Under the pieces are notes generated by a model that saw only the letters and a program-made list of their open reading frames with translations, had not been told where the DNA came from and did no database searches. A program made the translations under genes and the position numbers. DNA of 37,082 nucleotides from a virus. Taxonomy: Duplodnaviria; Heunggongvirae; Uroviricota; Caudoviricetes. Shown one piece after another: positions 311 to 25,004 of the stretch (the stretch's first letter is position 1; the number at the start of each line of letters is the position of its first letter). Location of the stretch: the IMG/VR virus record IMGVR_UViG_3300031952_004642; one strand, given 5' to 3'.

Positions 311-499
311 TTACCTGCCAATCGATGAGGTTGCGCCGCCAACCGCTCTGCGGATGACTGCGGCAATCCCGTAGAATATTGCGAGAACGCCACCAACTAC
401 GCCCAGCGAAAGGACAATGGTTACGACTGGAGACTGTATGCTCGTGAGGAAAGACCCCAGACCAGCGCCCGCTTCGGACAGAGTTTCGTTAATGCCCAT
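311..499 (-). CDS. Putative major coat protein, copy 1 (62 aa, single TM helix, basic C-terminus)
   Basis: MGINETLSEAGAGLGSFLTSIQSPVVTIVLSLGVVGGVLAIFYGIAAVIRRAVGGATSSIGR. ATG 499 follows a GGTGA RBS. Acidic amphipathic N-term / hydrophobic helix / basic tail resembles helical coat proteins of filamentous viruses. Confidence 0.65.
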   Translation of the reverse strand: MGINETLSEAGAGLGSFLTSIQSPVVTIVLSLGVVGGVLAIFYGIAAVIRRAVGGATSSIGR

Positions 500-765: not shown

Positions 766-954
766 TTACTTGCCAATCGATGAAGTTGCACCGCCTACGG
801 CCCTTCTGATGACTGCGGCTATACCGTAGAAGATGGCAAGCACTCCGCCGACTACTCCGAGAGACAGCACAATTGTCACGACGGGAGACTGTATGCTCGT
901 GAGAAAGTTCCCCAGTCCAGTTCCTGCATCCTCAAGTGTCGCTTGAATTCCCAT
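766..954 (-). CDS. Putative major coat protein, copy 2 (62 aa)
   Basis: MGIQATLEDAGTGLGNFLTSIQSPVVTIVLSLGVVGGVLAIFYGIAAVIRRAVGGATSSIGK. ATG 954 follows a GGTGA RBS. Confidence 0.65.
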   Translation of the reverse strand: MGIQATLEDAGTGLGNFLTSIQSPVVTIVLSLGVVGGVLAIFYGIAAVIRRAVGGATSSIGK

Positions 955-1170: not shown

Positions 1171-1560
1171 ATGATGAAACGAACAAGGCTCACAAGAGGC
1201 CAGAAACACAAGAATCTCCCTACACGGCTCTATTTGGCACTCACAGGCAAGCTCCCGAGCGGATTGCGAAGCATGAAATCTGGAAAGAAACTCAAGCTCG
1301 AAGCAAGCCGAAAGACACCAATGAAAGAGCAATACATCGATTTTGCTTATTCCAGACCTCCCAAACAATATAGAAAAGAAGCAGTATCTAAAGTCATCGA
1401 AGAGATTAAAAGAGTCAGCCCTCATGCAAAGATAACGCTTCTTCCATTACCTGAAAAATTGGTATGGTTCCAAGACATCAGGGTTTCCAATATATCTGCT
1501 GGAGATGCACTGGAACTAGAAGGTTCACTCGGCGCAATAGGCGTGATTCAGAAAATCTAG
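1171..1560 (+). CDS. Basic protein with N-terminal MKRTRL tag
   Basis: ORF 1162..1560. ATG at 1171/1174 lies ~25 nt from the TATA and gives MMKRTRLTR. Confidence 0.7.
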   Translation: MMKRTRLTRGQKHKNLPTRLYLALTGKLPSGLRSMKSGKKLKLEASRKTPMKEQYIDFAYSRPPKQYRKEAVSKVIEEIKRVSPHAKITLLPLPEKLVWFQDIRVSNISAGDALELEGSLGAIGVIQKI

Positions 1561-1892
1561 ACATTCAGCAACTCATCCATCACTTTCTTGAAGCCTTCCC
1601 TGAACTGCGCAACGAATGTTATCGCCTTGTAGTAGGCATATACGAAGATTACCTGAATACCGAGGAAAGCACCAAAAAGCACGAAAATCGTCATCCACGA
1701 CGACACGTACACCATGGTATTATAGATTCCTGTAATGAATCCTTCAATGCCAGACAATAGAGGAGTATCAGACCACCCGAACAAGCCAGATGAACGTGCA
1801 CCTCCAGTAAACGCCGAAAACACCAACGCAATCAGCATGAAAATGACTGCAATTATGGCAACAGTAGTTATCGAAATGATGAATCCTCTCAT
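1557..1892 (-). CDS. Small two-TM membrane protein (minor virion protein candidate)
   Basis: 111 aa with two hydrophobic segments; last gene of the structural operon. Confidence 0.7.
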   Translation of the reverse strand: MRGFIISITTVAIIAVIFMLIALVFSAFTGGARSSGLFGWSDTPLLSGIEGFITGIYNTMVYVSSWMTIFVLFGAFLGIQVIFVYAYYKAITFVAQFREGFKKVMDELLNV

Positions 1893-2758
1893 TCAACCCG
1901 CCCCATTTTCATTTCCCTGTTAAAATCATCTTCCCAAATGAACCAGACCTTGAAACCGAATTCATTATATGGTTTAGATTCCATAAGTTCAACTTCTTTC
2001 TTCAAACTTGATGAAGGTTTATTGCATCCAGCATGCCAAAAAACACCATTAGCAAGTATAATCTTCTTTTGACCATTAGAATTTATAAAATCAGGACAAT
2101 GCCCATTTATTATAACCGACCCATCACCACAATATTTCCATTCATTTGGAAACTGTTCATCAAGATAATGTTTTACACGAATCTCAAATTTATTAGGTCG
2201 TCTATTTACAGTTTTTAGCATTTTACGTAATGACTCTTCACTATGCTTCTTACCGTAAAAAGGATTAGATTCACCAGCAAGTCCCTTTTTTTTATTTATT
2301 ATTGAAGAAAATCTCCTTCCAAAATTGGCCTTTCCAATTTTCATCTTCGTTTCGGCAGAATGACAACGACCATACCAATGATGATTCTTACCAGATGGAT
2401 AAACAATAATTCCTTCAGAAATACGAGAACGCTTCGTCTCAGAAATTTTATTGCGAATATCATCAGGCATCCTCTTACCTAGATGAGATTCAGACATTCG
2501 TCTTCTCGTTTTTAATGAATGAGTATGTCCAAAAAATGGATTTGCACTCCCACTACATTCTAAACCCCTCCCATACATAGGATTATTCACACCACTAAAA
2601 GCATCTGGATGATTTAAATACCATTCCTTCATACGAACACTCTGTTGCCACCCTAATTCTGGATGCTTCAAATGTAAAGCCTTATGAATATCACTAAGTT
2701 TTCGCCTTAATTCAACACTCCTGAAATATTTACCTTTTGTCATCTTATCAACCAACAC
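1889..2758 (-). mobile_element. Free-standing homing endonuclease: NUMOD3-like repeats plus C-terminal PD-(D/E)xK/Vsr-like domain
   Basis: Repeated NP(F/M)(Y/F)G(K/R)xHSxxT motifs, then PDFIN...IILANGVFWHA. Visibly AT-richer than its flanks and overlaps both neighbours. Confidence 0.8.
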
Positions 2759-3476
2759 TACGTTCCACGATTTTTATTCCTGCAACACGAAATAAAAACC
2801 ATCTAATTAAAATGAAGACAATCACTGGAATCATGAACACACCAAGCACAACGGAAGCTATCGAAAACACGAGCCACAGGATATCCCAGAAATTCGTCAT
2901 CATGTTGGTCGTCGATGACATCTGGTTCAGAAGATTTATCTCACTGGAACCGGACTGGTTGCAATCGATGAACTCGAGTGTCGCAAGAAACGGTATCGTC
3001 TCGACATTGAACTCGGTATAATTATAAGAGTTATTCGCATAACTCGAACCACCGTAGTCTTCAACATTGACAACGCACATCGAATATTTTCCAGCGAGAT
3101 TTATCGAATTATATACTACACCATAATCAGACTGCTGATACGGGAACTCAACGCTGAGTATGCCCTCATCCACCCACTGGCTGTAATCCGTGGTATCGAA
3201 TGTCACAGGGTCTTCACCATTACATTCGACAGTGACACTGAGATTATCATAAGGCAAGTCATCCACATTATTGTGACGCAAAAAGAGAACCCAGTTCTGG
3301 GAAGACTCATAAAACGTCAGGATGGACACGCTCTCTGATTCACCATTGATTTGAATGCGATGTGCGGCAGACATCTCAAAGGCGAAAATGGGAGCGAATG
3401 GACTCAGCTCGGCACGCACAGCAACAGGAGTAAGCATGATTGCCAGCAGCATCAACATCACGATTTTCCTAAACAC
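2748..3476 (-). CDS. Secreted, C-terminally anchored membrane protein (paralog of 3469..4251)
   Basis: Signal peptide; shares LPYD.....C.G....F.TTDY..W and the C-terminal TM (IRW..xR..G) with the neighbour. Confidence 0.8.
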   Translation of the reverse strand: MFRKIVMLMLLAIMLTPVAVRAELSPFAPIFAFEMSAAHRIQINGESESVSILTFYESSQNWVLFLRHNNVDDLPYDNLSVTVECNGEDPVTFDTTDYSQWVDEGILSVEFPYQQSDYGVVYNSINLAGKYSMCVVNVEDYGGSSYANNSYNYTEFNVETIPFLATLEFIDCNQSGSSEINLLNQMSSTTNMMTNFWDILWLVFSIASVVLGVFMIPVIVFILIRWFLFRVAGIKIVERSVG

Positions 3477-4251
3477 TATTCTCCCTCGAAAATATCTTAT
3501 GCCCCGAAATCCGATATATCGCCCATCTGATAAACAGTATCACAAGGGCTGGAATCCCGATGACGATGAACAACACGATGAGAGTCTCGAAAACGATGAA
3601 CGCAGTATTGAGTATGTTGAGATTGTTAGTAAACACCGATGAGATTCCGTTAATGAGCAGGCCAATCAAAGTCGTCCTATACTCATCACTGCAAAACGCA
3701 TCGAGAGTGATGACGGTATTCGTCAGCACTGGCACTACCTCGACATTGAAAGACGTATATCCAGCATTACCATCAACAACAAGGTCAGTCGCAGAAAGAA
3801 TCTGGCATGAAGACCATCTCGTTTCAATGGTCGCACTATTGTAAGTAAAGTTCTCGGTAAAATAGAAATTCCGCCCAACGCTTATGATTCCAGCAGTGTT
3901 CCAGCTCGCATAGTCAGTCGTATGGAATCCAGTAGGCAGAGCATCGCCAGAGCAGATGTAATTGACATAGAAGTCATCATAAGGCAGCGCATCCCCAATG
4001 CTGGCCCTGAAGACCAGATAGAAAGAAGACGATTCCCCATGGAAGGCACGGACATCAATAACCCTAGATGAGTTCGTATATGAATCGAATTTCATGACAG
4101 CACGCCCCGCCGCACGGAACTTGTTGATATCACTCTCTGGAATAGCAGACGCATACTTCATCATCAGAGCAGTGATTACAAGTGCAACTGCAACCGAGAA
4201 TGCGAGCACACGCCATCGGAAGTACATATTCATATCACCAAAGGAAAACAT
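3469..4251 (-). CDS. Secreted, C-terminally anchored membrane protein (paralog of 2748..3476)
   Basis: N-terminal hydrophobic segment, C-terminal TM, shared motifs with the neighbour. Confidence 0.8.
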   Translation of the reverse strand: MFSFGDMNMYFRWRVLAFSVAVALVITALMMKYASAIPESDINKFRAAGRAVMKFDSYTNSSRVIDVRAFHGESSSFYLVFRASIGDALPYDDFYVNYICSGDALPTGFHTTDYASWNTAGIISVGRNFYFTENFTYNSATIETRWSSCQILSATDLVVDGNAGYTSFNVEVVPVLTNTVITLDAFCSDEYRTTLIGLLINGISSVFTNNLNILNTAFIVFETLIVLFIVIGIPALVILFIRWAIYRISGHKIFSRENSV

Positions 4252-7200
4252 TCATCGCCAAATAGATTATAGTCGGAAGTATCACCATCGCAGCAATCGC
4301 AGCCTTGAGGCTTCCCGTAGCCATGAGCACGATGAAAAAGAATATCATCGCCAGAATCGCAAATGCCCCGAGAGACAGCCATGACGCAAAGATGCCGAAC
4401 GAGAAACCTGAAATAACCAGCTCTGTCGGATTTTCATAAAGGTCGAAATCCTCGGCCCCATTGAGATAATAGCTTCCAAGATTAAGCAGCAATCTCGACT
4501 GGGTTTTGACTGGAGGACAGAAAGCACATGTCACAGGCACACCAAGCGGATTTATCAGATACCAATCAATATTGTTTCCAACTATGAACATTGAATAGTT
4601 TCCAATCTCATAGAGAGTTATAGTCGCCGTACCGTTCCTGTAAGCTCCATGCCAATAACACTCATCCGACCCTTCAGGCGGGCAGGCAAATTTATCACGG
4701 CCAAAGAACACATGCAAAGTAGGGTCTACATCCCTGATGAAATAAATCCACGCAAACTCATTCCTGTATTCAGAACCTGCCGTCATGTTGATATTGTTCC
4801 AGATTCGGATGGTAATATTAAAAGGAGTCCGCACCTTGATGAGCCCATCCTCAACCAAGACAGGCGGGAAGTCGCCAGACACATTGAAAGAATAATCACC
4901 ATTAGCAAACGGTATCCACATCACCTCATAGGCCGAATCTGCTGGAACCCAGACCATATCTCCTTCCGAGCCATCGATGAAAATCGTCAGGTTTGGAATC
5001 ACGAAAACTGATGTCCCATTAAGAATGATATATGCTTTTATCATAGTCGGGCTCCCTGCCACAGCGTATGGACTATAGAATAAAGAAAGCTGGAAATCCA
5101 CAATCTCGACATCGAAATTGACAACATCAGACCCATTCCCAGCCACATTTCTAGCATAGCAATATAACATATGCGCCCCAGTATCATTCATCTGCAAGCT
5201 AAACGTACCAGTGGAATTAACAATGAACAATGCATCACCAGTCGAATTTCTCAGCAACGCAAAAGACTCCAGCAGCGGTGTCAATGTATCAACAGACCAT
5301 GTGAAAGTCTGATTACCCTCCAACAAAACTATCGCAGTATATGAATCAATCGAACATGTAGGAAGGCTTGCAGAAGTCAGATTAAAATGAAAATAATCCG
5401 TTCTATTTTCCATGAAAGAATTTGAGCAATTTCCCATACCAGTGTACTGCTTCGGCTCAGACCATTGACTAAAGATATATGGAACTTCATACCATCCAGA
5501 AGTAACATTATACACCAATGGAATCGAACCGACAGTTGCAAAAATCCATTGTGCATGTTCTGGCCCAAAAGCAGTCCAGTTACTGGTCTGTGAAAGATTG
5601 CCATGATACGTATAACCTGAATTATGCGCATTAACTCCTACATACCAGCTATCATTCCCACCAGAACAATCTGAACAACCACCATAAAACCCATAGTAAG
5701 CCATTGACGGATTTCCGAGACTAACCAGAGACTGCTGAAGCCAACTCTGGTTAGCATATAAATTTATAGGTTGCACAGTAGAATTCATGACCCCAAACAA
5801 AGCATCAAGGAAAGAACATGAAAACGAACCTATAAAATCAGTATAATTCACCGAAGTGATGTTAATAACTCCATCCATGCTAATGAACGGATTTGTGGCT
5901 GAAATGAAAGCCCATATAGAGAAATTACCCAAAGTCTGATTGGTGCATCTCAGATACGCACCACCACCAACATCAGAAATCTCAGTAGGAAGGTACACGG
6001 AAAAACCAGCAAAGCTATCATTTACAAACTGCTCCTCAGAATTCACTTCCAAAAATCTTTTGATTAGAACAGTATCATTTAGACTCACCAAACAAGATGC
6101 ATCAATGATTGCCGAATTGTTTCTGGCATACGAATAATTACATTCCAGCATAGTCGATAAGCCCACCGGAATCATATCAGGAAATGCCTGACAAACCAGA
6201 TTAGTGCCATAAGAAGACACAGTAAAACATGTCTGGTTCATGGACTGCCTACCAAAAGTATTGTTTAACCAGACATTTATGCAATTCCCGCCAAGCGGCA
6301 CATAAATGGTCGTGTTCGGCACAAAGGTCACATTGATGCCACCATTGAGCGAGTACCACCATTTATCAATTGAACCAGCACCACCATAAGGCGAAACAGC
6401 AAGGTTCATCACCTCAGTCGTAAAGGTCGCATTGGCTGGAGAATGGATGGTTATGTTCGGAGCCGCTGGCGAGCCATCAGTATAGTAAATCTCAATATAT
6501 GGCTCATATGAGGATTCATTGGAATTCACATCAATAAAACAATCAACCCCAGCATAATTCTCATAAGAACCCTGAATCCTGTAAAATGTACTTGCAGCTT
6601 TCGCTATCCAGTTGCTGACATTCACAGTTTGCCAGCCAGTCGAATTCTCATTGGCATAAAAATAAATGCTGATATTCTGGTAAGCAGCATCCCAATCTGA
6701 TTCACCAAGGTCTCCATAATTAGAGATATTCTGCAACCAGAAACGTGAGGAGCCAGAACTGCATGTCTTACTTGCAACACGTCCATAGAACGTCGCATTC
6801 ACGATGGAATCCCATGAGTCAATCATCGACGTGTTGAATTTCAAATATGCACGATAGACGTAATCAGAATCACCAGTGCCTACATTATTCCCAACTGACA
6901 AAGTTATGCTCGTTAGAAAGACATCAAAAACACCAGTTACACGCTTCTCAATGTAACCATCATGGAAAGGATACGACACAACATATGGGTCAATCAAAAC
7001 AGTTTCACCAACCTTTATTCCAGCCTTCACCCAGTCCTTAAAGAATGTGATTTGCGCCTCACGCTCATTCAGCACAACGATATCAAAGGTGAACCCATTC
7101 ACAATCACATCCTCGAAAGACATGAACTTATCCTCATCCAACACAATGAAATCCTTATTCAGAAGGCGAATCGACTTATCTGCAACAACATTGACAGTCG

Positions 7201-7558
7201 CCTTGAAATCCTCACGAGGCAGGACAAACGAGTAGCTCCATTTGAAGCCTCCCTCGACTTTCTCTGAAACAGTCCTGAATTCAGTCACTTCCCTGAAATC
7301 GATTTCACGGTCTTCAGAATCACGGGCCACGAAATTAATGGCAATGCTCTCCTTACCATCGGTAAAAGTGAGACGGGATTCATCAACAACCGGAACAAGC
7401 TTCTTTGACAAATCTGGAAGCGGCTCAGGCTTGACCCTGATACTATCACTGGCTGCATGAACATTAACAGGCTGGAAGAACAATGCAACAACTAAAAAAA
7501 CTGCCAAAATTCCAATTACAGGCCAATGCATTCTTGAACACATGCTTTTGCATCCCAT
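4235..7558 (-). CDS. Large surface/spike-like protein with DNRLRE-like and Ig-like segments and C-terminal TMs
   Basis: Probable start at ATG 7558 (MGCKSM...WPVIGILAVFLVVALFF). YRAYLKFNTSMI...IVNATF resembles a DNRLRE/CBM96 motif; many N-x-S/T sequons; two C-terminal TM helices. Confidence 0.75.
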   Translation of the reverse strand: MGCKSMCSRMHWPVIGILAVFLVVALFFQPVNVHAASDSIRVKPEPLPDLSKKLVPVVDESRLTFTDGKESIAINFVARDSEDREIDFREVTEFRTVSEKVEGGFKWSYSFVLPREDFKATVNVVADKSIRLLNKDFIVLDEDKFMSFEDVIVNGFTFDIVVLNEREAQITFFKDWVKAGIKVGETVLIDPYVVSYPFHDGYIEKRVTGVFDVFLTSITLSVGNNVGTGDSDYVYRAYLKFNTSMIDSWDSIVNATFYGRVASKTCSSGSSRFWLQNISNYGDLGESDWDAAYQNISIYFYANENSTGWQTVNVSNWIAKAASTFYRIQGSYENYAGVDCFIDVNSNESSYEPYIEIYYTDGSPAAPNITIHSPANATFTTEVMNLAVSPYGGAGSIDKWWYSLNGGINVTFVPNTTIYVPLGGNCINVWLNNTFGRQSMNQTCFTVSSYGTNLVCQAFPDMIPVGLSTMLECNYSYARNNSAIIDASCLVSLNDTVLIKRFLEVNSEEQFVNDSFAGFSVYLPTEISDVGGGAYLRCTNQTLGNFSIWAFISATNPFISMDGVINITSVNYTDFIGSFSCSFLDALFGVMNSTVQPINLYANQSWLQQSLVSLGNPSMAYYGFYGGCSDCSGGNDSWYVGVNAHNSGYTYHGNLSQTSNWTAFGPEHAQWIFATVGSIPLVYNVTSGWYEVPYIFSQWSEPKQYTGMGNCSNSFMENRTDYFHFNLTSASLPTCSIDSYTAIVLLEGNQTFTWSVDTLTPLLESFALLRNSTGDALFIVNSTGTFSLQMNDTGAHMLYCYARNVAGNGSDVVNFDVEIVDFQLSLFYSPYAVAGSPTMIKAYIILNGTSVFVIPNLTIFIDGSEGDMVWVPADSAYEVMWIPFANGDYSFNVSGDFPPVLVEDGLIKVRTPFNITIRIWNNINMTAGSEYRNEFAWIYFIRDVDPTLHVFFGRDKFACPPEGSDECYWHGAYRNGTATITLYEIGNYSMFIVGNNIDWYLINPLGVPVTCAFCPPVKTQSRLLLNLGSYYLNGAEDFDLYENPTELVISGFSFGIFASWLSLGAFAILAMIFFFIVLMATGSLKAAIAAMVILPTIIYLAMNVFLW

Positions 7559-7575
7559 CACATCACATCGAACAT

Positions 7576-10500
7576 TTACAGCGATTTCGACACCGCCTTG
7601 AATCCGAGACCAGCTATCGCTATCACGAGTATGACAAGAGCAAGAGCGATGCCTATCGACATCAGCGGGTCGAAAGTGGGCCCAATGAAATTCAGCATGC
7701 CCGAACGCATGCAAGTCAGCATGCCGACCGTCGTTGACTGGTCACATGCAATACCACCAGTCGGCGAAGGTATGCAAACCTTCTCAGCCGCATCACACAG
7801 ATAATCACATGTCATCCTCTGGGCAACACATGTACCAGCCCCACCACAAGTCCAGCTCTCAAGCGTATACGCATCAAGGCACTGATTGCCACCATAACAT
7901 TCGGAATCAAAACGACAGACATCTGTAGAGGTCTCATCAATGCAACCCACGTCATCATCACACAAATCAACCGCCAGACATGTCTCCTGAGAATATTCAC
8001 AAACACATTCATCCACATTACACCCAGTAAGGCTGTAGAACACACCACCCTGACAATAGGAAGGAGCACAGTCAACACTGGACTGGCACGGCAGCTCATC
8101 GATTGAATATGGAAGAGTAAATGTCGTTGATGTGCTTATGGTATCTTCATGAATCAGAACTTGTTGAGTCGCATTATACAGCCAAGCGCACCCAGTCAAT
8201 TGAAGGAAAAGTGAAAGATTCACTGGATATGTCCCATTTATAACGATAAAAGTGAACGGGAAAGTCGTAGCAACAGTAGTTGGCCTGATGGTATCCATTC
8301 CAGATGCAGTCACACTGACACGACCTCCAGTAATCGGAACATGACCCTTAGACTGGACATTCACGACAACATTCGCACCCTTCGTGAGAGTGTAAGATTT
8401 CTCAGTAAGGTAACTATATCCACCAGCGACAGCCTCAACAAACACATCTCCTGTATGGATAGCAGTCTTGTATCCTGTCTTCGATACTATGACGAGATAT
8501 TCTCTCGGATTACCAGTCGGCGTATACGTAATCTTACAGTTATCATTATCAACAGATGCCGAAAACGTGACACCAGACAAAGGCGAAACAACGAGCAGAA
8601 TCTTTCCATAACTATCAGTCGTGTAGACCATCCCATCAACGCTAACGGAAGCCCCAGATATCGGATTCTCGCTCTCATCAAAAACATAAATCGGCAATAT
8701 GTAAGACTGAGCAAGCAAGTTGACATAGAATTTCATATTATCACATGAAACAGGAACATCATAAGTAGTCTGGGTATTGATTGGCAGATAATCCATCGAA
8801 GTAAAGGTTATATCGTTCTGGAGACGCTTCGTCGTGTGCAGCAGAATAGATGACCCCTGAGACGATTCAGTGTATCCATCATTGGCGACATTCACCACTG
8901 TAACATTGGCCCCTATCGTAGTCCCTGTCAGCGGGTCTGTGTATGTCGAATAAACGATGAGCGGCAAAAACTCCTCAGTCGCAAAGTATATTCCAGTCGA
9001 GTAAAGCGGAGTTCCCCATAAGATGTAATTATAATTCGATGTCTTGCGCTCATAGGCATAAGCATATCTTCCAGTGATTGCAATCTTATCGGTGAGGCGG
9101 ATGTCCTCACTCAATGAAAAGTTCAGTAAATAGTATGGCTGCTGCGGAGTATACGTATCGAAATCGCTCGTCATCGTCCCATAGAATCCCTCCGGCTCAT
9201 CCATGCCATTATCGGGCCTTGCATACTTGAAATCATCTCCCTCACTACGGATGTAAGTAAAACCATAGTAATCCGAAACAAATCCCGAAGAAATCGTATC
9301 ATTGAAGTAATCTCCAAGACCAGCACCTACATCCAATTCCGCCATTATCCTGAAATGATTATCATCGTAAACGATTCCACGGGCCTTATAAAAACCAGTC
9401 CCACCACAACCAGTCCCCCAGAATTTAATCGCAGGTGTCGTATGATGAAGAGTGCCATTCAGATAATAGAAATCTATATGCAAAGTCCTGAGAGCCCACG
9501 TGAAAAATCCGCAACCGCCTGTACCATGACCAACACCATTAGCCCTAAGGATGGCTATCAATGGCTGGCTCGTATCCTTATGATAGAATCCAAGCGGATA
9601 ATACCGAGTGCAACTTGAAGAAGTCCCGCCACAGCCAATCGTAGTCTTAGTCCAGACAGGCGATAGAGCAGTTGGAGACGTATAAGACCAGAGCTTGGCA
9701 TTGGTGTCTCCATTCGTAGTGATTACATAATACTTGTTGTCTGGCGCATAGAACATTATATCATATGGCATCGGCTCATAAGTAGCGTTCAGGTAATTCC
9801 AGTTCGGAAGGTCATTTCCACCATAATCTGGGTCATTGAGCGGGAAATGCACAGTCTGCTGATAGGTCAACGGTGACCCAGTGAAACCATTATCAGACCA
9901 ATAGATATTAAGACCACCACCAACTACCCACAAATTCGTATTCCAAGCAAGGATGGCACAATGCTGCTCATTCTCCTGACAGGCGACCTTCGGGTCGTAC
10001 CAATGATAACCAAGAAGCGAACCAAGGTAATCTGTATAATAGACAGGAGTCCCAGCAGTATATTCCTCGGCTGGCGTATAAGCTGGAGGCTCAAAACAAT
10101 CCTCGAACTCAACCCTCGGGTCTAACCCGCCACCCAAGTCACTGCACGTCCTATATTTCAGGTAATCTGCACATACACTCCAGTCATTGCAAGACCAGTT
10201 CGGCTCATATCCCCAAATAGTCATGTTATAATCTGTATAATCATAATGGACAGAACCACCGAAAGCACCAGAAGCGCCAGTACAGACAAGATAAGTCATA
10301 AGCCAATATTCAGTGTCAGCAGTAAGAGTCAGCTCATCACTATAAGGTGTTGATGAAGAAAGCAAAGAAACCGAATCACTACCAGTATCCCAAAGATAAA
10401 CACTCCTCGAACACGAGGTCACAGCATAACCAGAATCATGGTCTTCCATATCTGTGACACTCACATTCACAAATCCAGAAGCCATGGAATTGAACGGCCT

Positions 10501-11211
10501 GAAAGACCAGTATCCCATGCCCATATTCCTGTTCTGTGCACATGCATAGCTGTCAGCAGCATCAACACGAAGATTACCACCGCAATACCCTGAACCACTC
10601 CATTTATGGGAATATCCAGCCTTTATCAAAGCAACGACCTCCTGAGCTTCGGCCAACGCAGTAGGCGCAGCACATGCAGGACTGATTTGACAACAAGCCC
10701 ATGACTGATAGGAATAACCATATGGGAAATTCCCATGCGCATCGGTATCAGTCGTATTCGTGTAATAAAGATAATCATTCCCGTCCATTTCACAGATATA
10801 ATTGGCTTCACCCCACGTGGCAGTAGTAGTAGCAGAAGAAACAGTCTTTGTCCGTGTCTCGAAAAAATCATTGGAAGAAGCATTCGCAAATCCAGTCCCA
10901 AGACTCAGGCAATTAATATTTACAGGAAATAACGGATTGCTCGCAGAGACCTGAACACTAGAAGGAGAATACCACGTATTCGTAAGCGTAAAAGTACCAG
11001 AATGCGCAGCAGTTGCCCTTAAAGTCAGATTCACCGAACATGAGCCATTCCAGAAAAAGCTTGGCATTTCAACATAATGATTTGAAGTCCCATCATCCTG
11101 AAGAACGTAATTGGCTGTATACGATGCAGAAACAGTCCAGATTGAAGATGCAACCACCAACAGGAAGGCGGTAAGCATACAACTAAATAACAGAATTTTA
11201 CTCGTGAACAT
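7576..11211 (-). CDS. Large Cys-rich secreted protein with C-terminal TM anchor (adhesin/spike candidate)
   Basis: Signal peptide; WSCNDWSVC..RTCSD TSP1-like motif; ENPISGASVSV carboxypeptidase-regulatory-like motif; Cys-rich C-terminal repeats; terminal TM. Confidence 0.8.
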   Translation of the reverse strand: MFTSKILLFSCMLTAFLLVVASSIWTVSASYTANYVLQDDGTSNHYVEMPSFFWNGSCSVNLTLRATAAHSGTFTLTNTWYSPSSVQVSASNPLFPVNINCLSLGTGFANASSNDFFETRTKTVSSATTTATWGEANYICEMDGNDYLYYTNTTDTDAHGNFPYGYSYQSWACCQISPACAAPTALAEAQEVVALIKAGYSHKWSGSGYCGGNLRVDAADSYACAQNRNMGMGYWSFRPFNSMASGFVNVSVTDMEDHDSGYAVTSCSRSVYLWDTGSDSVSLLSSSTPYSDELTLTADTEYWLMTYLVCTGASGAFGGSVHYDYTDYNMTIWGYEPNWSCNDWSVCADYLKYRTCSDLGGGLDPRVEFEDCFEPPAYTPAEEYTAGTPVYYTDYLGSLLGYHWYDPKVACQENEQHCAILAWNTNLWVVGGGLNIYWSDNGFTGSPLTYQQTVHFPLNDPDYGGNDLPNWNYLNATYEPMPYDIMFYAPDNKYYVITTNGDTNAKLWSYTSPTALSPVWTKTTIGCGGTSSSCTRYYPLGFYHKDTSQPLIAILRANGVGHGTGGCGFFTWALRTLHIDFYYLNGTLHHTTPAIKFWGTGCGGTGFYKARGIVYDDNHFRIMAELDVGAGLGDYFNDTISSGFVSDYYGFTYIRSEGDDFKYARPDNGMDEPEGFYGTMTSDFDTYTPQQPYYLLNFSLSEDIRLTDKIAITGRYAYAYERKTSNYNYILWGTPLYSTGIYFATEEFLPLIVYSTYTDPLTGTTIGANVTVVNVANDGYTESSQGSSILLHTTKRLQNDITFTSMDYLPINTQTTYDVPVSCDNMKFYVNLLAQSYILPIYVFDESENPISGASVSVDGMVYTTDSYGKILLVVSPLSGVTFSASVDNDNCKITYTPTGNPREYLVIVSKTGYKTAIHTGDVFVEAVAGGYSYLTEKSYTLTKGANVVVNVQSKGHVPITGGRVSVTASGMDTIRPTTVATTFPFTFIVINGTYPVNLSLFLQLTGCAWLYNATQQVLIHEDTISTSTTFTLPYSIDELPCQSSVDCAPSYCQGGVFYSLTGCNVDECVCEYSQETCLAVDLCDDDVGCIDETSTDVCRFDSECYGGNQCLDAYTLESWTCGGAGTCVAQRMTCDYLCDAAEKVCIPSPTGGIACDQSTTVGMLTCMRSGMLNFIGPTFDPLMSIGIALALVILVIAIAGLGFKAVSKSL

Positions 11212-11427: not shown

Positions 11428-11983
11428 ATGAATGAAAATACCGAAATCCCAATACCCACACCAGCCGCACAAGAACCAATGCAAAAACGGATAATCGATA
11501 TGAGGAACGTCAACTTCGAAGTAGACCCAATGGTCGCACACAAGATTCAGACACAAATGAACGACAATCCCAGATTCGCCCAGACCATCAACACAAACAT
11601 CACGAAGCTGTTCTACGAATATCTCATGTACAAGGTCAAGATGCGTGAAAACCTGAATATCGCCATAAAAGGAGAAACTCGTTCAGGAAAGTCCACCGTC
11701 GCAATTTCGCTTGGCAATTTCATAGCATCCATGACCAGAGTCCCGTATGGCCCATTCAACATCTGCGCAAACGAGAGCGAGTACTACACAAAAGTAAGAA
11801 AAGCCAAGTTCAATGAACTATATCATATAGACGAACAAAAAGAATCGAAATTCGGAGCTGGGTCTTTCAGGGAAGAGATGGGAATTATGGATATGGACTT
11901 CATCATAAATCAAAAGAAGACCACCAGAAATCCAGAAATGAAACAGGCAATACCTGATTCACTGGAGCATTATAGCCAAGCAA
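11428..11983 (+). CDS. P-loop ATPase N-extein (exons 11428-11892, 11930-11937, 11968-11983); putative packaging/extrusion ATPase
   Basis: Walker A GETRSGKS, Walker B YHIDE. After removing two BHB introns it reads ...REEMGIMD-IQN-IIAKQ directly into the intein Cys1. Confidence 0.85.
11893..11929 (+). other. BHB-type intron 1 (37 nt, relaxed motif)
   Basis: 5' bulge ATA (11891-93), 3' bulge AAA (11928-30), central helix ATGG/CCAG with one mismatch, intron stem TGG-A-CTTC/GAAG-A-CCA. Removal gives GAT|ATC and the frame shift needed. Confidence 0.75.
11938..11967 (+). other. BHB intron 2 (30 nt, canonical)
   Basis: Exon stem AAT/ATT, central helix CCAG/CTGG, bulges AAA and AGC, intron stem TGAA-A-CAGG/CCTG-A-TTCA. 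Removes an in-frame TGA and gives CAG AA|C ATT (QNI). Confidence 0.9.
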
Positions 11984-12316
11984 TGCTTGACCTCGAACAC
12001 GAAAATATTCGTGCTGGACAAATCCTCATCTCATTTCACATCAAAGACCCTATCCGAGCTTGCTCAAATAGGTTCATTCAACGTGCTTGCGGCTGACCCG
12101 ATATGGCTGGCAAAAGGTTGGCTGAAAACTGAACCTAAAAAAGCAATTATAACATTCGCTGGGAAGAAGGCAATCAGGAAGCTGAAAACGGAAAATGGTA
12201 AACAAGTGAGCGGGAGCAACGAACATAAGCTTTACGTGAAAAGAGGAAAGAAGATTTTAAAGCTCACGATAGGCGAGATAAAATTAGGAGATGAATTGGT
12301 TTGCCTACCAAGATAG
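11984..12316 (+). mobile_element. Split intein N-half (110 aa, ends at its own stop codon)
   Basis: Starts CLTSNTKIFVLD (block A); block B-like KLKTENGKQVSGSNEHKLYV...IGEIKLGDELV; stop TAG at 12314-16. Confidence 0.85.
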
Positions 12317-13026
12317 ATATATCAAAAAAAAAGTTGGAACGACTTTACTGGAAAGAAGGTCTCTCCATCAATAAAATATCCAAAAGACTTTCGCTCAACA
12401 AGAATACTATTTATGACATGATGGTTCAAAAGCACATCCAACGAAGAAACTATTCGAATGCACTCCGTTTTTCCATCAAAGAACCAAACAAGCAAACATT
12501 AGCTTATCTCGCTGGTGTACTTGCTGGCGATGGTAATATAAATTCTAACGGAACCTTTGAATTGCAGACAATCGACCACGATTTCGCAGTTCACACATTT
12601 AATCGGCTTGATTCAATCGCCCCAGCCAAATTCATAAAACTAAAGAGAAAAACATCCGCTGGCAACCCAGTCTTCTCTATCAGATTGCATCGCAGAAAAT
12701 TCAATGACTTACTACAGAAAGTAAAGATTACGAATATAACGCACAAGAACTGGTTCATAAATGGTATTATCGATTCAGAAGCTTGTGTAAATAATTCTAA
12801 CCGAACTGTATCTATTTACATGGACAACAAGAACCTGCTGATACAAATTCAGAGTTATCTCAAATCCCAAAAAATTCATTCACGATTATATTGCAGAAAT
12901 GGATTACACTATTCACTTGTAATCATCAGGAAAGATTCAATTCTAAAATTCCATAAATATTTTCGCTTCTCAATCAAACGCAAAGAAGATAAACTTAAAC
13001 AAATCATATTAAATTATAGGAGGTAA
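12301..13026 (+). mobile_element. Free-standing LAGLIDADG homing endonuclease with N-terminal HTH
   Basis: LAYLAGVLAGDG and FINGIIDSEA motifs; separate frame from both intein halves; TTG start after GGAG. Confidence 0.9.
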
Positions 13027-13030
13027 TCAT

Positions 13031-13153
13031 ATGCATGAAATAGCAACGACCAAAATCACAGACATTCAGGAAGGCAAACCACAGGATACCTACGATATCG
13101 GCGTAAAGGATTGGCATAATTTCGTCCTTTCCAACGGTATACTGAGTTTAAAT
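13031..13153 (+). mobile_element. Split intein C-half (41 aa)
   Basis: GGAGGT RBS then ATG: MHEIATTKITDIQEGKPQDTYDIGVKDWHNFVLSNGILSLN|C. Blocks F/G present, terminal Asn, +1 Cys. Missed by the ORF track (too short). Confidence 0.9.
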
Positions 13154-13925
13154 TGTGTCCATACCATAGCCATCTGACGGCGGTAAAATGGATATACCCC
13201 TCGGACTTCATAGGATTTTTGCATAACGCACAAACCCGAAGAAAGCGAGGAACTCAGTATATGGCTTAAAGCAGAATGAGAAAATTCATCCCGCTGGCTA
13301 AGAAACCTACGGAAAAGACCTAAAGAACAAACTCATCAGATGCCTCGTTTACGATGTACGCCGCACAGTGATGGGCATGGCCACACCACTCGGCTACTTA
13401 ATCATCCCTAAGTTGGCTGAAGAAAAATATCAGCAGATGAATGAGAAAATCTGGTCGAATTACAGGCTCAACAACAAATATAAGCTCAACAGAACAGATT
13501 TTGACAGCATGTTAGAAGAAATGTATGAACAGAAAAAAGATACGTGGATTCAAAAAGAGCAGGACAGAGACTTCGGAACTCATCATGAAGAGAGATTCAA
13601 GCTCGGCGTATGGCTTGGTGAGCAGAAACAATTCATCGAGATAGACCACAAAGCTAAACAAAGGATTCTTGCGAGACAAATTTTCCGTGATTTGACCGAA
13701 GGTGAAATCGATGAGGTTGTCGAGACCGCACGAATGGGATTAAAGCTGGCAGACATCGAGAAGATGAAACAGAAACACACCAAAGATGCACGAAAAGAAG
13801 ACGAGACACTCGAAGAAGAAGAACGAGCCGAAATCGTAGCAAAAGCTGAACAAACTACCGAAAATACTGAAAAGGTTTCTGAAAACGATGAACAGGCTCC
13901 CGATGAAACCGAAAAACAGTCCTAA
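13154..13925 (+). CDS. ATPase C-extein (exons 13154-13167, 13188-13211, 13244-13268, 13302-13925)
   Basis: After removing three BHB introns: CVHTI-WIYPSDFI-ARNSVYGL-ETYGKDLKNKLIRCLVYDVRRTVMGMATPLGYLIIPK..., continuous with ORF 13368..13925. Confidence 0.85.
13168..13187 (+). other. BHB intron 3 (20 nt, canonical)
   Basis: Exon stem GTCCA/TGGAT, central helix TACC/GGTA, bulges ATA and AAA, intron stem GCC/GGC. Removal gives AT|A TGG and deletes a TGA. Confidence 0.92.
13212..13243 (+). other. BHB intron 4 (32 nt)
   Basis: Central helix CTTC/GAAG, bulges ATA and AAA, intron stem GG-A-TTT..TGC/GCA..AAA-C-CC. Removal gives AT|A GCG AGG AAC (IARN). Confidence 0.88.
13269..13301 (+). other. BHB intron 5 (33 nt)
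   Basis: Central helix GGCU/GGCU (G.U, G-C, C-G, U.G), bulges UAA and AAG, intron stem AGC..AUGAG/UUCAU..GCU. Removal gives TTA|GAA and deletes a TAA. Confidence 0.82.
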
Positions 13926-18365: not shown

Positions 18366-18380
18366 GACAAAGCAAAGCAG

Positions 18381-18659: not shown

Positions 18660-18673
18660 AATGAATCACGATT

Positions 18674-19009: not shown

Positions 19010-19010
19010 A

Positions 19011-19400
19011 TCATTTCCCCCTCTTATCAGCATCACGAGCACGGTCAGCAGCCCTCAATGCATTAACAGCCTGCTCAGCCGTAAATCCACGCTGAAAATA
19101 ATCCCTGAGCTTGCTCTCATTTACGATTCCACCATATCCGAAACCGACATTCTGCTCGTACTGCTCAAAGGGAGAGAGCTTCACCTTCGGCTCAGCCACA
19201 GTTATACGCTCAGCGAGCAAATCCTTGAAGCTTCTGCCAGTGCGATGAGAAAGCGCCCATGCTTCCATGAAATCCTGTTTGGTGATTGGATATTCCTTGC
19301 CCTCAACGAGAACGGTCTTCCTGTACTTCGGGAGCTTGCCTTTAATGGCGAGCCTACCCACGCCCCGAACAGTCACCCTATGCAGATTCGACCTTTTCAT
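19011..19400 (-). CDS. Tagged protein (MKRSNL...GRL)
   Basis: 129-aa ORF. Confidence 0.75.
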   Translation of the reverse strand: MKRSNLHRVTVRGVGRLAIKGKLPKYRKTVLVEGKEYPITKQDFMEAWALSHRTGRSFKDLLAERITVAEPKVKLSPFEQYEQNVGFGYGGIVNESKLRDYFQRGFTAEQAVNALRAADRARDADKRGK

Positions 19401-19957
19401 GTGAATGCCTCCTTCTTCGCATCTTTCATTTCTTTCTGAATCAGCTTAGCAGAATTCGTGACAGAGAAATCCTCATAAGGCATTTCAGCCGAAAAGAATG
19501 GCTCAGGTTCCATGGATTTGGCCCACTCCTTATGCATTTTCGAAACAACAGCCTTCTTTTCCTTCGGCTTCATCCCAGCAGTCGCTATGGTTTCCTGAAG
19601 CTCTTCCTGCCATTCACCACTCATCGCCTTGCCATAAACCTTTGCGGCCTTGCCAGCAAACTGTAAGAATTTCTTCATGCCTTCACGGAACTTGATAGGC
19701 GGCTTCGGAGTTAACGCCGCACGGCCTTTCTGCCATACGGCAAGCTGGCCAGCACGGCTCTGGATTTCCTGCTCAGCGACCTGTTTTGTCTCAGCAAGAA
19801 CTGGATTCCCAGCAGTCACTTTCGCCGAAAGAGTAGCATATTTCTTGACCCGTTCAGTGGGCATACCTTTGAGCTCAGAGGCAATCTGCCGCCTGAGACG
19901 ACCATTGCCCTTCATTGAAGAGCCAGACCTCGATAAACGTGTTCTTCCCATAGCCAT
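19397..19957 (-). CDS. Tagged helical protein (MAMGRTRL)
   Basis: 186 aa; first gene after the promoter at 19978-20003. Confidence 0.8.
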   Translation of the reverse strand: MAMGRTRLSRSGSSMKGNGRLRRQIASELKGMPTERVKKYATLSAKVTAGNPVLAETKQVAEQEIQSRAGQLAVWQKGRAALTPKPPIKFREGMKKFLQFAGKAAKVYGKAMSGEWQEELQETIATAGMKPKEKKAVVSKMHKEWAKSMEPEPFFSAEMPYEDFSVTNSAKLIQKEMKDAKKEAFT

Positions 19958-19977
19958 ATTGATAGTTCTAATTTTGG

Positions 19978-20003
19978 TTTATAAATGACACCTAAAATGG
20001 CAG
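19978..20003 (-). promoter_or_regulatory. Array promoter
   Basis: TTTATAAATGACACCTAAAATGGCAG. Confidence 0.75.
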
Positions 20004-20004
20004 A

Positions 20005-21705
20005 CTACCTGCCAATGTTTGACACTGCGCCACCGACAGCACGACGAACAGCCATAGCCACACCCATGAACATCGCCAAGATGCCACCAACAACACCCAG
20101 ACCAAGGATTATATTAGAAAGAGGGTTCGTTATCGCAGTGAAGAAACCACCAAGACCAGACCCTGAATCACTGAGCACCTGATAAATCGGAGATTCCATC
20201 AGCTCATAATCTGAAAGCTGTGTAACAGTAAGGTCAACACTGCCATCAATTCCAAGATGAAAATATGTACAAATATCTATCGGACATTGTGCGCCATTCC
20301 TCATGATAATGAACTGAGTATCACCAGTAAATCCAGTCGATGTGAATGTCAGGATGGCTGGCTGGTCAAGCTCAGGCATAGCACCAGCATCAACACTTAT
20401 CCTTCTGTGAGATATCGCAATCGAATCACCAAATCCAAGGCTGCTTCCAGACAAGTCCACAGGAACAGTCCAGTTTATCATGCCATAACCAGATTCAAGA
20501 ATCAGGTCAACCGAAGACCAGTTCGAAATGGATGAAAAGTCAGTAGTTTCACCACCACTAAATTCTGAGATATCAATACTGTACGAACACTCCTCATCAA
20601 GACAAAAAGGAACATAAATTACATTCCCACTGAATTTGCTCGCATTAGGTGTTGCAGAACCCCACCAGTTGTCAGTCGCATCAACATCAGAAATGGCATT
20701 AACCAGAGCATTGATAAACACAAACTCGGTATTATTCACCACCTTATTTAAATTTATGGAATTATTTGCTGGCCCAGTATTATTTCCCTCACAACTGACA
20801 AGGACACCTATCTTATTATCAACGAATTCATTGAATCGTATGACATTTCCTTCACTGACTTCATGGATATAGATGGCAGAACCCTTGCCAGCAGTGATGA
20901 TAGTTCCCCAGAATGTAGTGACTACCGCCGTGCTCACATGATTTGAAACATTATTATTCTCAATAACAGAATTCGTGACCTGATGCACATTGATACCCAT
21001 GGCAGTGTTATTAATGATGACATTACCAGCCACATAATCACCATCATCATACTTTATGCTGATACCATTCCCGTTATTTCCAGAAACGATATTATTGATT
21101 ATGGTGTTATGACCAGTGCCATAAGTGGAAATTCCAGAACCGCTATTGTTGGCTATCACATTGCCACTGACAGTTATATTGGAAACGTGCTGTGCCAAAT
21201 AATCCCCAGCATCATAGAACAAGATTCCTTTATTTGTGTTTGCGACAATCTGATTTCCGATGATAGAAATGCCATCCACACCATTGCCAGCAGCATAACC
21301 AACCCTGATTCCATATGAACTCCCAGTCATGGTGTTGTTGAATATCAGGCCACCGCTTATCGGATTTACAGAATCATCTATTATAAGAGTCCCAACGACA
21401 GTGCAACCTTCAAAAGTAACATTGCCTGCACGTATCTTTTCCTGTCCAGTAATCATCACAGACTCAGAGCCTGCGCCATGCAAAACAATGCTCGTATTTA
21501 TTATCAGGTTCTCCGTATAACTTCCAGCTTCAACGCTGACTGTATCACCAGAAACAGCCAAATCTATCGCACCCTGCACGGTAGTCGAATTGCAACCAGA
21601 GCCACAAACCGTGAGAGTGGCTGACTGGACGCTTGGAACTAACAGGAAACAAAGTGCAAGTATGAGTAAAGAAAGCTTATATGCACAGCCATTCCAGATG
21701 CCCAT
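20005..21705 (-). CDS. Secreted right-handed beta-helix (NosD/pectin-lyase-like) protein fused to a C-terminal coat-protein module
   Basis: Signal peptide; TVCGSGCNSTTVQGAID start; I.GN.I.NN repeats. The last ~55 aa align with the 62-aa coat proteins (GLGGFFTAITNP...LGLGVVGGILAMF.GVAMAVRRAVGGAVSNIGR). Confidence 0.85.
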   Translation of the reverse strand: MGIWNGCAYKLSLLILALCFLLVPSVQSATLTVCGSGCNSTTVQGAIDLAVSGDTVSVEAGSYTENLIINTSIVLHGAGSESVMITGQEKIRAGNVTFEGCTVVGTLIIDDSVNPISGGLIFNNTMTGSSYGIRVGYAAGNGVDGISIIGNQIVANTNKGILFYDAGDYLAQHVSNITVSGNVIANNSGSGISTYGTGHNTIINNIVSGNNGNGISIKYDDGDYVAGNVIINNTAMGINVHQVTNSVIENNNVSNHVSTAVVTTFWGTIITAGKGSAIYIHEVSEGNVIRFNEFVDNKIGVLVSCEGNNTGPANNSINLNKVVNNTEFVFINALVNAISDVDATDNWWGSATPNASKFSGNVIYVPFCLDEECSYSIDISEFSGGETTDFSSISNWSSVDLILESGYGMINWTVPVDLSGSSLGFGDSIAISHRRISVDAGAMPELDQPAILTFTSTGFTGDTQFIIMRNGAQCPIDICTYFHLGIDGSVDLTVTQLSDYELMESPIYQVLSDSGSGLGGFFTAITNPLSNIILGLGVVGGILAMFMGVAMAVRRAVGGAVSNIGR

Positions 21706-21727
21706 AAGCAATCCTTCGAAAGGGCAC

Positions 21728-21752
21728 TTATAAATGACACCTAAAATGGCAG
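21728..21752 (-). promoter_or_regulatory. Array promoter
   Basis: TTATAAATGACACCTAAAATGGCAG. Confidence 0.75.
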
Positions 21753-21754
21753 AT

Positions 21755-22063
21755 TCAATAAATTTTCAAAGACCATGGAAGGTTCGGTGTCATCCGCTGT
21801 TTGATGTTACGCTTCACGAAATTCGTCTTCATCTGCTTTTCGAGCTTCGTTAGGTATTTGTAATAACTGGGGTGCTCAAAAATATGGGCCTTCGCTATCT
21901 GTTTTGCCAGAGACGCATCATCAGTATGCTCTTTCTCGACCTCGATTCCAATAGCAAGTTGCTTCGGGTCAAAAAGCTCATCAGGGTCATCACCATGCTT
22001 CAGCCTGAAAACGCATTTCTTATGCACAGACTTTCTGGCCAAACGTGAACCATAGACAGACAT
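21755..22063 (-). CDS. DUF5661-like protein with tag variant (MSVYGSRL)
   Basis: QLAIGIEVEKEHTDD...AKQIAKAHIFEHPSYYKYL matches the DUF5661 pattern (from memory); start ATG 22063. Confidence 0.7.
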   Translation of the reverse strand: MSVYGSRLARKSVHKKCVFRLKHGDDPDELFDPKQLAIGIEVEKEHTDDASLAKQIAKAHIFEHPSYYKYLTKLEKQMKTNFVKRNIKQRMTPNLPWSLKIY

Positions 22064-22064
22064 A

Positions 22065-22184
22065 TCAGCACCTAAACATCTCATCAGGCATAGCTCCCAG
22101 CGCAGCAGAAGCACTGTATTCCTCATCTGATTTCTTGCGCTTCTTACGATGAATGAACCTTGATAAACGGGATTTATGTTTCAT
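22065..22184 (-). CDS. Tagged 39-aa microprotein (not in ORF track)
   Basis: MKHKSRLSRFIHRKKRKKSDEEYSASAALGAMPDEMFRC, with GAGGT RBS. Confidence 0.65.
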   Translation of the reverse strand: MKHKSRLSRFIHRKKRKKSDEEYSASAALGAMPDEMFRC

Positions 22185-22191
22185 AATTACC

Positions 22192-22632
22192 TCAATAAAC
22201 CTTCCCGAGCTTCGCATTAACTTCTTCTTTAAATGCAACAACTTTATCAGAATCCAACTTTAGACCTCCCTTAAAATCACCAAGCTCAACAAGCCTGCCA
22301 TCCTTTTCAGCAGACCATCGATGCTTATAGATATCATAGAAAACCTTGTTCTGATAGCCACGTCTTATTGCAATAGGGAACTTAACACCAAGATGTTTCA
22401 TGGCAATCTCATTAAAAATACGCTTAAAAAGATGAGCATCCTCACGGTTACTCACAGAGAATAATGACTCATATGGCTCATCATTCACATGAATCTTATC
22501 TGAAGGAACATCATACCTTCCATAATCGGAAGGCTTTGGTTCTTCCTGCCTGTCAGAAAGCATATACTGAGAAACAAGCCTCTTGCGCCGAGGTTTTACT
22601 TTCATACCAGAAAGTCTGGATTTACGCTTCAT
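22192..22632 (-). CDS. Tagged protein (MKRKSRL)
   Basis: 146-aa ORF. Confidence 0.8.
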   Translation of the reverse strand: MKRKSRLSGMKVKPRRKRLVSQYMLSDRQEEPKPSDYGRYDVPSDKIHVNDEPYESLFSVSNREDAHLFKRIFNEIAMKHLGVKFPIAIRRGYQNKVFYDIYKHRWSAEKDGRLVELGDFKGGLKLDSDKVVAFKEEVNAKLGKVY

Positions 22633-22793
22633 CTTTTTTCACCCCACAACTCAACAGGCATCGGTCTCCTGACATGAGGATTATTCACAGCACGCAATTC
22701 ACCAAGCCTGTAATCAACAAAATATTCACGGCCACCTATCACCGTCACAGGCAACCTTCTCGGACTCCTCGAGAGACGTGATTTACGCTTCAT
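22629..22793 (-). CDS. Tagged 54-aa microprotein (not in ORF track)
   Basis: MKRKSRLSRSPRRLPVTVIGGREYFVDYRLGELRAVNNPH...; first gene after the promoter at 22818-22841. Confidence 0.75.
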   Translation of the reverse strand: MKRKSRLSRSPRRLPVTVIGGREYFVDYRLGELRAVNNPHVRRPMPVELWGEKR

Positions 22794-22817
22794 AGAATTA
22801 ATATTTGGAAAGCTGAC

Positions 22818-22841
22818 TTATAATACTATCGAAAATGGCAG
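22818..22841 (-). promoter_or_regulatory. Array promoter
   Basis: TTATAATACTATCGAAAATGGCAG. Confidence 0.7.
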
Positions 22842-22874
22842 AAACCTTTTTATAAAAAGCGTTTACGGAAAAAC

Positions 22875-23393: not shown

Positions 23394-23398
23394 ATCAA

Positions 23399-23806: not shown

Positions 23807-23807
23807 A

Positions 23808-23999: not shown

Positions 24000-24004
24000 G
24001 AAAA

Positions 24005-24999: not shown

Positions 25000-25004
25000 A
25001 AGAT

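Follow-up and report, generated by a model that had tools for sequence, protein, structure and literature searches.

A beta-helix protein ending in a presumed coat-protein module, and a family of similar fusions in large sediment elements

A 37,082-nucleotide stretch of DNA (the window), part of a 106,106 bp contig from a sediment metagenome, carries on its minus strand a gene for a beta-helix protein whose C-terminus resembles a 62-aa protein encoded twice elsewhere in the window, and the locus raises the question of what a large folded domain is doing on a copy of a small, presumed coat protein. A preliminary description read the gene as natural phage display, the passenger being a swappable glycan-binding or glycan-degrading domain. 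The ATG of the gene is at 21705; the ORF list extends the frame to an upstream TTG at 21711, and the 566-aa form is the version present in the protein collection. Its parts are as follows.

20005..21705, minus strand: fusion gene, 566 aa (P0008), signal peptide, beta-helix, stalk and coat-like module
21622..21705, minus strand: Sec-type signal peptide, aa 1-28, with a signal-peptide-like hydrophobic stretch at aa 13-31 and a putative cleavage site
21460..21621, minus strand: beta-helix N-cap, aa 29-82, conserved part of the chassis (Pectinesterase-like N-terminus, E 2e-4)
20701..21459, minus strand: right-handed beta-helix core, aa 83-335, the variable, swapped passenger (from Pfam, the model and the chassis comparison)
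20197..20700, minus strand: conserved stalk, aa 336-503, with a beta-domain at aa 384-503
20008..20196, minus strand: coat-like module, aa 504-566, with an amphipathic helix, Pro, one transmembrane helix and a basic tail

In a six-frame search of the window, the C-terminal 58 residues of the fusion matched the reading frames at 311..499 (E 1.7e-19) and 766..954 (E 7.2e-19), with the next match at E 0.8, and the homology, previously put at some 55 residues, is ungapped over all 62, with 56% identity to the 311..499 copy. The signal peptide and the NosD/pectin-lyase-like beta-helix of the preliminary description were both recovered, the latter by Pfam NosD (E 8e-14) and Beta_helix (E 8.5e-13), and an AlphaFold model of the fusion matches right-handed beta-helices with Z up to 30; Pfam and the structural matches together identify a parallel beta-helix with an N-cap. 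The AlgE4 A-module aligns over 295 residues with an rmsd of 2.5 Å (Z 30.0), and the non-enzymes NosD (Z 27.8) and PfbA (Z 27.6) tie with enzymes such as lyases and tailspikes, so that the fold does not discriminate between binding and cutting. The core is unconserved among relatives, and we estimate that binding is the likelier activity, with cutting a substantial second possibility.

For the Ig-like linker of the earlier anatomy we found no support in the stalk, whose sole matches, all weak, point to an autopeptidase fold of the Nup98 type: its beta-domain, aa 384-503, resembles predicted Nup98/ZU5 autopeptidase domains with TM 0.58-0.62 in the four best rows of a predicted-to-predicted comparison in the ESM Atlas. 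The stalk may therefore be closer to a Nup98-type autopeptidase than to an Ig domain, and the ZU5, Nup98 and GPS autopeptidase domains belong to one superfamily (PMC3482391). Pfam PF04096 gives a weak E of 0.09-0.16 for the stalk, and a sequence search of the PDB found no match for the domain. Autopeptidase domains of this kind carry a His-x-Ser cleavage motif at the last strand; in our alignment of ten proteins, H-M-S precedes the module in P0041 and P0042 only, and since the window protein has Q-L-S at this point, self-cleavage is a lead for that subfamily and is not claimed for the window protein. Perhaps some displayed adhesins or depolymerases of the family are shed by autoproteolysis.

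That the passenger is swappable was borne out at the level of sequence by a set of ten proteins that share the architecture of the window protein, here called the chassis set, in which cores have been exchanged between near-identical chassis. Between P0041 and P0042, identity is 78% over leader and cap, 26% over the core, 90% over the stalk and 100% over the module, and the window protein compared with either displays the same pattern of conserved flanks and divergent core. Among the chassis relatives generally, the signal peptide and cap are 65-76% identical and the beta-helix core, the close strain P0035 excepted, 15-31% identical. Passengers would change in two ways, by exchange of the core between conserved flanks and by movement of whole genes as cassettes between promoter repeats, and the second way concerns the two elements that border the fusion gene.

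21728..21753, minus strand: upstream promoter repeat, CTGCCATTTT motif and TATA box, 26 bp identical to the downstream copy
19979..20004, minus strand: downstream promoter repeat, abutting the stop codon, which closes the cassette and serves the next operon

The fusion gene had been described as sitting in its own promoter unit, and indeed a TATA-containing repeat ends 22 nt before its ATG and the next copy starts one base past its stop codon, making the gene a promoter-flanked cassette. These flanks give the longest identical run, 26 bp, among the 45 pairs of the ten promoter copies. In L040, a related strain that is about 82% identical at the fusion locus, both flanks are identical to each other over 28 bp, and they differ from the window flanks at the same three bases on both sides; since the flanks are alike within each strain and differ between strains, recombination between them is implied. 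Identical flanks were found only in the window and L040, and not around 21 other fusion genes. In one DNA run, probably that from which the window came, no junction bypassing the cassette appeared among the contigs, from which rare forms tend to be lost. The ten promoter copies (CTGCCATTTT, then a TATA box) split the accessory array at 15148-31627 of the window (minus strand) into cassettes, and the same TGCCA/TGACA motif, sometimes inverted, precedes coat and fusion genes of relatives. As a separate observation on this array, some 30 unrelated accessory ORFs at 14000-31600 (minus strand) start with a basic motif of the approximate form M-x(0-3)-[KR]-[RK]-S-R-L, which could serve in targeting or packaging, enhance translation or act as a handle for recombination.

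The preliminary description had proposed looking in related genomes for the same C-terminal module on different passengers, and such proteins are common. A profile of the 62-aa proteins gathered 172 clusters at 50% identity; among 156 classified rows, comprising the best 150 of the 172 clusters and close relatives, the module stands at the C-terminus of a longer protein in 109 and alone in 37. Grouped by BLAST, the 99 passengers give 32 sets that show no link to one another, so that, as judged by sequence, at least 32 apparently unrelated passenger groups are carried on about 100 long module-ended proteins. Passenger types include beta-helix, PKD/Ig-like, DUF2341 and LamG domains, sizes range from 50 to 1600 aa, and N-glycosylation sequons occur at a mean of 3.6 per 100 aa. 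A hydrophobic leader is present in 70 of the 98 fusions of at least 130 aa, and several of the others look N-terminally cut. Six proteins (P0069, P0125, P0135, P0149, P0183 and P0187) have the arrangement reversed, with the module N-terminal and, C-terminal to it, a charged extension of 40-70 aa on the inward side. On the contig of the fusion gene, about 5 kb past the left edge of the window, a Laminin G protein of 3096 aa is called.

Fusion modules have a median identity of 34% between genomes, against 82% for the stand-alone protein. The window's module is nearer to the coats of other genomes (61%) than to its own (53%), and fusions match the stand-alone copy of their own genome best, or tied for best, in 9 of 14 cases, the window not among them, matches that kinship explains equally well. 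In L041, three fusions at 10001-16161 have modules that are 66-82% identical mutually, against 34% between genomes, which suggests homogenisation within that genome. A module tree of 155 rows and 52 columns has 14 changes between stand-alone and fusion forms, against 44 for shuffles, and its starred branches force only one. Neither the 62-aa protein nor the fusion, its stalk or the ATPase described below had a relative in the viral contig collection or in named phage genomes, and the sole species-genome match, in a Saprospiraceae bin (L015; 27 aa, 48%), was set aside as chance, the bin having none of the operon genes. A literature search of limited scope found no earlier description of the family or of such capsid-protein fusions; the family is undescribed, and it is widespread.

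Whether these fusions could be incorporated into a particle depends on what the stand-alone protein is and on the genes around it, which in the window are the following.

311..499, minus strand: stand-alone 62-aa presumed major coat protein, adjoining a conserved gene for a membrane protein of about 335 aa
766..954, minus strand: another stand-alone 62-aa copy (89% identical), at the slot where relatives have fusions
1557..11211, minus strand: conserved structural operon, membrane-anchored proteins of 1211, 1107, 260, 236 and 111 aa (from synteny in about 17 genomes and a transmembrane scan)
11428..13925, plus strand: conserved P-loop ATPase gene, split, divergent from the operon, presumed extrusion or packaging motor

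The stand-alone protein is the most conserved of its block, its 82% median comparing with 30-54% for the eight neighbouring genes. The 135 modules compared read as a single helix whose first half is acidic and amphipathic (moment peak at 100 degrees); a proline and one hydrophobic segment follow, and the tail is basic and amphipathic, net positive in 91% and 87%; G11 is invariant, with Pro 13 residues later in 141 of 155. The one transmembrane segment of the 62-aa protein, at 25-43, fits the 30-90 aa, one-segment structural proteins of inoviruses. Fusions retain the whole amphipathic half, for which a plain anchor would have no use. Archaeosortase-type C-terminal sorting tags (PGF-CTERM and kin) consist of a short motif, a transmembrane helix and a basic cluster and go with a cognate sortase gene; Pfam found no such tag on the module, and there was no sortase gene among the genes scanned. 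A sequon precedes G11 in 21 of 32 stand-alone clusters (shuffles: mean 6.7, maximum 14) and in 1 of 103 fusions. Its position ahead of the helix indicates that the N-terminus lies outside an archaeal-type membrane, and the counts point to the glycan and the passenger sharing one position. Both 62-aa genes have a long conserved 5' leader from TATA box to ATG, at 500-665 and 955-1120 of the window (minus strand), for which Rfam gave no match; the fusion gene, unlike both, is leaderless.

Searches of Pfam, PHROG, the PDB and phage genomes returned no match for the 62-aa proteins, to known capsid proteins or otherwise, and the leads from the ESM Atlas include an inovirus major-coat cluster with PF19199 on 17% of its members (score 0.87, below the trust mark). 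The term coat protein in the preliminary description is thus upheld in part, by conservation, by operon position near a pI/Zot-like ATPase and by an inovirus-like helix anatomy; since no database names the protein, we retain coat as a presumption.

Relatives are partial, at 43-67 kb, and share a common gene order, in which the divergent ATPase is followed by five membrane-anchored proteins (two large, three smaller), a variable slot, the stand-alone 62-aa gene, the membrane protein of about 335 aa and four small genes. In all 17 genomes that cover the slot a stand-alone copy precedes the ~335-aa gene; the slot itself holds one or two fusions in eight, a second stand-alone copy, as here, in five, and nothing in four. 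There are also fusions upstream of the ATPase and others downstream of the operon. The statement that the fusion gene lies far from the structural operon is accordingly correct for the window genome and fails for the eight relatives with fusions inside the operon, directly before the 62-aa gene; because positions vary in this way, the remote site is one of several and not a rule. Distant lineages keep the gene set, L041 with three fusions and the ATPase, L042 with a stand-alone gene, a fusion and operon genes, and L006 likewise among them. In the window a NUMOD3 gene is inserted in the operon. The 1211-aa protein has an amphipathic-Pro-transmembrane-basic end like the module, at 7576-7750 (minus strand) and kept in relatives; a profile comparison with the module gave a probability of 9.5%, and we do not count the protein as a family member, though its end is possibly an old fusion.

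The ATPase is encoded in two parts, aa 4-144 at 11494-11916 and aa 158-325 at 13245-13781, separated by an insertion that holds a LAGLIDADG/HNH-like homing-endonuclease ORF (12301-13026) and is probably an intron or a degenerate intein; relatives have inteins or splits in this gene. Its predicted model has a RecA-type P-loop fold, and the PDB matches are generic P-loops of this type. The best named viral match in Foldseek is inovirus Zot/pI, at rank 3 (E 5e-5, TM 0.27/0.42), with Zot in the PDB one among many P-loops (Z 7.0); ATV ORF286 (E 3.4e-4), Acholeplasma phage L2 (E 1.5e-3) and an NSV protein (E 2.7e-3) also match, the first and last of these not above other P-loops, and VirB4, TcpA and TrwB fit at Z 7-8. 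Neither Pfam nor PHROG gave a Zot match. There is no transmembrane helix, the maximum 19-residue hydropathy in four homologues being 0.85-1.13, and the ATPases of wyrdviruses and fuselloviruses, also pI-like, lack one as well (10.1101/2021.07.29.453957).

The host is probably archaeal, since TATA boxes lie about 22 nt before start codons, sequons are present and the ATPase gene carries a homing-endonuclease insertion. MCM-like helicase and primase-like genes, recognised by motif and without a Pfam match, are listed with a GHKL-type ATPase (Pfam HATPase_c_3, E 1e-4) at 35006-36679 (minus), 33159-33902 (minus) and 28392-29804 (plus), and by these motifs the MCM-like and primase-like genes suggest dsDNA replication. 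A 26-bp inverted repeat with a 10-nt loop at 34942-35003, between an HNH gene and the helicase-like gene, is a possible origin or terminator.

The reading that we prefer, at a probability of about one half, is that the 62-aa protein is a coat subunit and that the assembly machine takes the fusions into the protein shell, so that display is natural to these elements. The element would be a non-tailed virus, large at 106 kb, infecting an uncultivated archaeon and assembling at the membrane, with the 62-aa protein as its major coat subunit, a leaderless single helix oriented N-out/C-in in the membrane with an N-glycosylated outer tip, which the ATPase might strip onto the DNA through the basic tail. 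A fusion would then be a coat subunit with a folded protein in place of the glycan site; its signal peptide would export the passenger, and the module would hold it in the membrane in the topology of the coat, from where the machine could build a small number of copies into the shell, either along its side or at its ends, because a passenger of 300-1500 aa cannot fill every site. The likeliest ligand of the beta-helix, bound and possibly also trimmed, would be a surface glycan or an extracellular polymer, from the host or from the sediment biofilm. Several points weigh against this reading: the fusion modules drift more than the stand-alone protein, as would suit a place in a membrane or at a tip better than one in a tight lattice; the module of the window is nearer to foreign coats than to its own; and the ATPase, unlike pI, has no transmembrane helix. 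One important consideration is that to our knowledge 106 kb is far beyond any inovirus genome, so that a filament like that of Ff, at its normal size, is excluded as the shell. The genes read cover 37 of the 106 kb, so a conventional capsid gene could lie elsewhere on the contig, and the sequence data contain no direct sign of a particle. Extended to the whole family, the proposal is more tentative, falling somewhat short of an even chance: archaeal viruses with genomes of up to 100 kb or more would have an inovirus-like shell of single-helix glycoproteins and a mobile library of co-assembled coat fusions, displaying exchangeable adhesins or depolymerases for host recognition in a natural pVIII-type display.

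The alternative that survives best, though we consider it rather unlikely, is an enveloped particle, in which the 62-aa protein would serve as the principal membrane (matrix) protein in a lipid-containing virion released by budding, display would occur on the envelope, and the module would anchor and sort the spikes, collecting them in the budding patch through contacts between helices. The faster drift of the fusion modules, the membrane anchoring of all operon proteins, the large genome and the matches of the ATPase to phage L2 and a spindle-virus protein would all fit such a particle, whereas the stand-alone protein is extremely conserved, of fixed length and with invariant glycines, features that suggest tight regular packing, and no fusion protein or spike resembling those of pleolipoviruses was recognised among the genes searched.

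Coat display in a protein shell has also to be weighed against a plasmid-like element with a cell-attached filament or surface coat, an improbable reading in which the 62-aa protein would be a new pilin, the fusions modular minor pilins acting as adhesins, and the ATPase a transfer motor, as its fit to VirB4, TcpA and TrwB would allow; the lack of relatives in the viral contig collection would be in keeping with this. Conjugative pilins have two hydrophobic segments, however, and the 62-aa protein has one; it has no prepilin leader or N-terminal hydrophobic helix, and the gene-dense array of short ORFs is virus-like. Modular pilins are a known strategy (10.1101/2021.01.27.428410), but the passengers here are N-terminal, opposite to those of type IV modular pilins. 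Least probable is a remodelling of the infected cell, in which the module, taken from the coat gene, would do no more than anchor the fusions in the membrane or tag them for sorting, and the fusions would stay on the host surface for superinfection exclusion, biofilm adhesion or polymer degradation: the fusion gene of the window genome does share its promoter class with the accessory cassettes, and a heavy sequon load suits any archaeal surface protein, but every fusion keeps the amphipathic half, 8 of 17 genomes have fusions beside the coat gene within the structural operon and under the same promoter motif, and none of 20 distant members checked was on a contig longer than 43 kb, with no chromosomal use seen.

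If display in the shell is correct, the pVIII phage-display trick would be an evolved and diversified natural strategy whose passengers reach 1,600 residues, and the linkers and module substitutions that an assembly machine tolerates could be read from about 100 natural cases. By three markers, the 62-aa protein, the ATPase and the ~335-aa membrane protein, these large elements from sediment are defined as a family, and searching with the module offers a practical way to its receptor-binding proteins and hence to its hosts. With a presumed coat that is inovirus-like and a motor and life style that are spindle-virus-like, the family also offers a testable link between two groups of extruded viruses, whose ATPases are known to be related.

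Compared with known systems, the closest subunit is the inovirus major coat protein (pVIII or Pf3), which is likewise a short helix with an acidic amphipathic N-half, one transmembrane segment and a basic C-tail; the 62-aa protein is leaderless as in Pf3, and its passengers sit at the outer N-terminus beside a wild-type copy as in hybrid pVIII display. Natural inoviruses have divergent minor coats (pIII, pVI), and we know of no library of full coat fusions in them. Inoviruses encode a pI (Zot-like, FtsK-HerA) ATPase (Roux 2019 PMC6813254), and an ATPase that may be pI/Zot-like lies near the 62-aa gene here. The differences are the absence of a sequence match, N-glycan sequons on the 62-aa protein, a 106 kb genome with MCM-like and primase-like genes in place of a small circular one, and an ATPase without the transmembrane helix that anchors pI.

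The spindle-shaped archaeal viruses compared (Fuselloviridae, Halspiviridae, Wyrdviridae, Bicaudaviridae and nanohaloarchaeal DNSVs) combine a pI-like ATPase that is soluble with small hydrophobic capsid genes (a single one or two paralogues) and large adhesin genes, a conserved block of unknown genes lying between them (10.1101/2021.07.29.453957, 10.1101/2025.02.15.638363). A soluble ATPase is syntenic here as well, with ATV ORF286 and an NSV protein among its fold matches. In spindle viruses the capsid protein forms a hairpin, about 80 aa long, from two hydrophobic helices (10.1101/2025.02.15.638363, 10.1101/2021.07.29.453957), whereas the 62-aa protein has only one hydrophobic segment (mean hydropathy 2.25 vs 0.46) after an amphipathic first half, and its lack of loop insertions and fixed G11-Pro spacing are unlike a two-helix hairpin; nor are spindle-virus adhesins reported as capsid-protein fusions (10.1101/2021.07.29.453957, 10.1101/2025.02.15.638363).

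Modular type IV pilins such as S. sanguinis PilB graft an adhesive module on a filament subunit in many architectures (10.1101/2021.01.27.428410) and so resemble the present fusions in presenting an adhesive module on an assembling subunit, but the pilin module is N-terminal and prepilin-processed, while here the module is C-terminal behind a Sec signal and is encoded on a mobile element; Pfam gave no pilin match for the family. The Ig/FN3-extended major tail proteins (SPP1 gp17.1*, lambda gpV, T5 pb6) carry a domain outward and co-assemble with the plain subunit, at 3:1 in SPP1 (PMC8718954), and differ in adding one small domain, by frameshift or fixed fusion from one gene, where the present passengers are on separate mobile genes. 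The IME1 elements of Dehalococcoidia, compared by description only, are larger dsDNA elements, proposed to be extruded or budded, that encode small hydrophobic proteins and a pI-like ATPase (10.64898/2026.09.15.751708), and they differ in being bacterial, little over 20 kb, and equipped with SSV1-like capsid candidates. Because genome size and pI anchor, capsid shape and polarity differ, respectively, the family stands outside the inoviruses, the spindle viruses and the pilins; in operation it is comparable to pVIII display, to modular pilins and to the SPP1 tail subunit in its extended form, and is a member of none of them.
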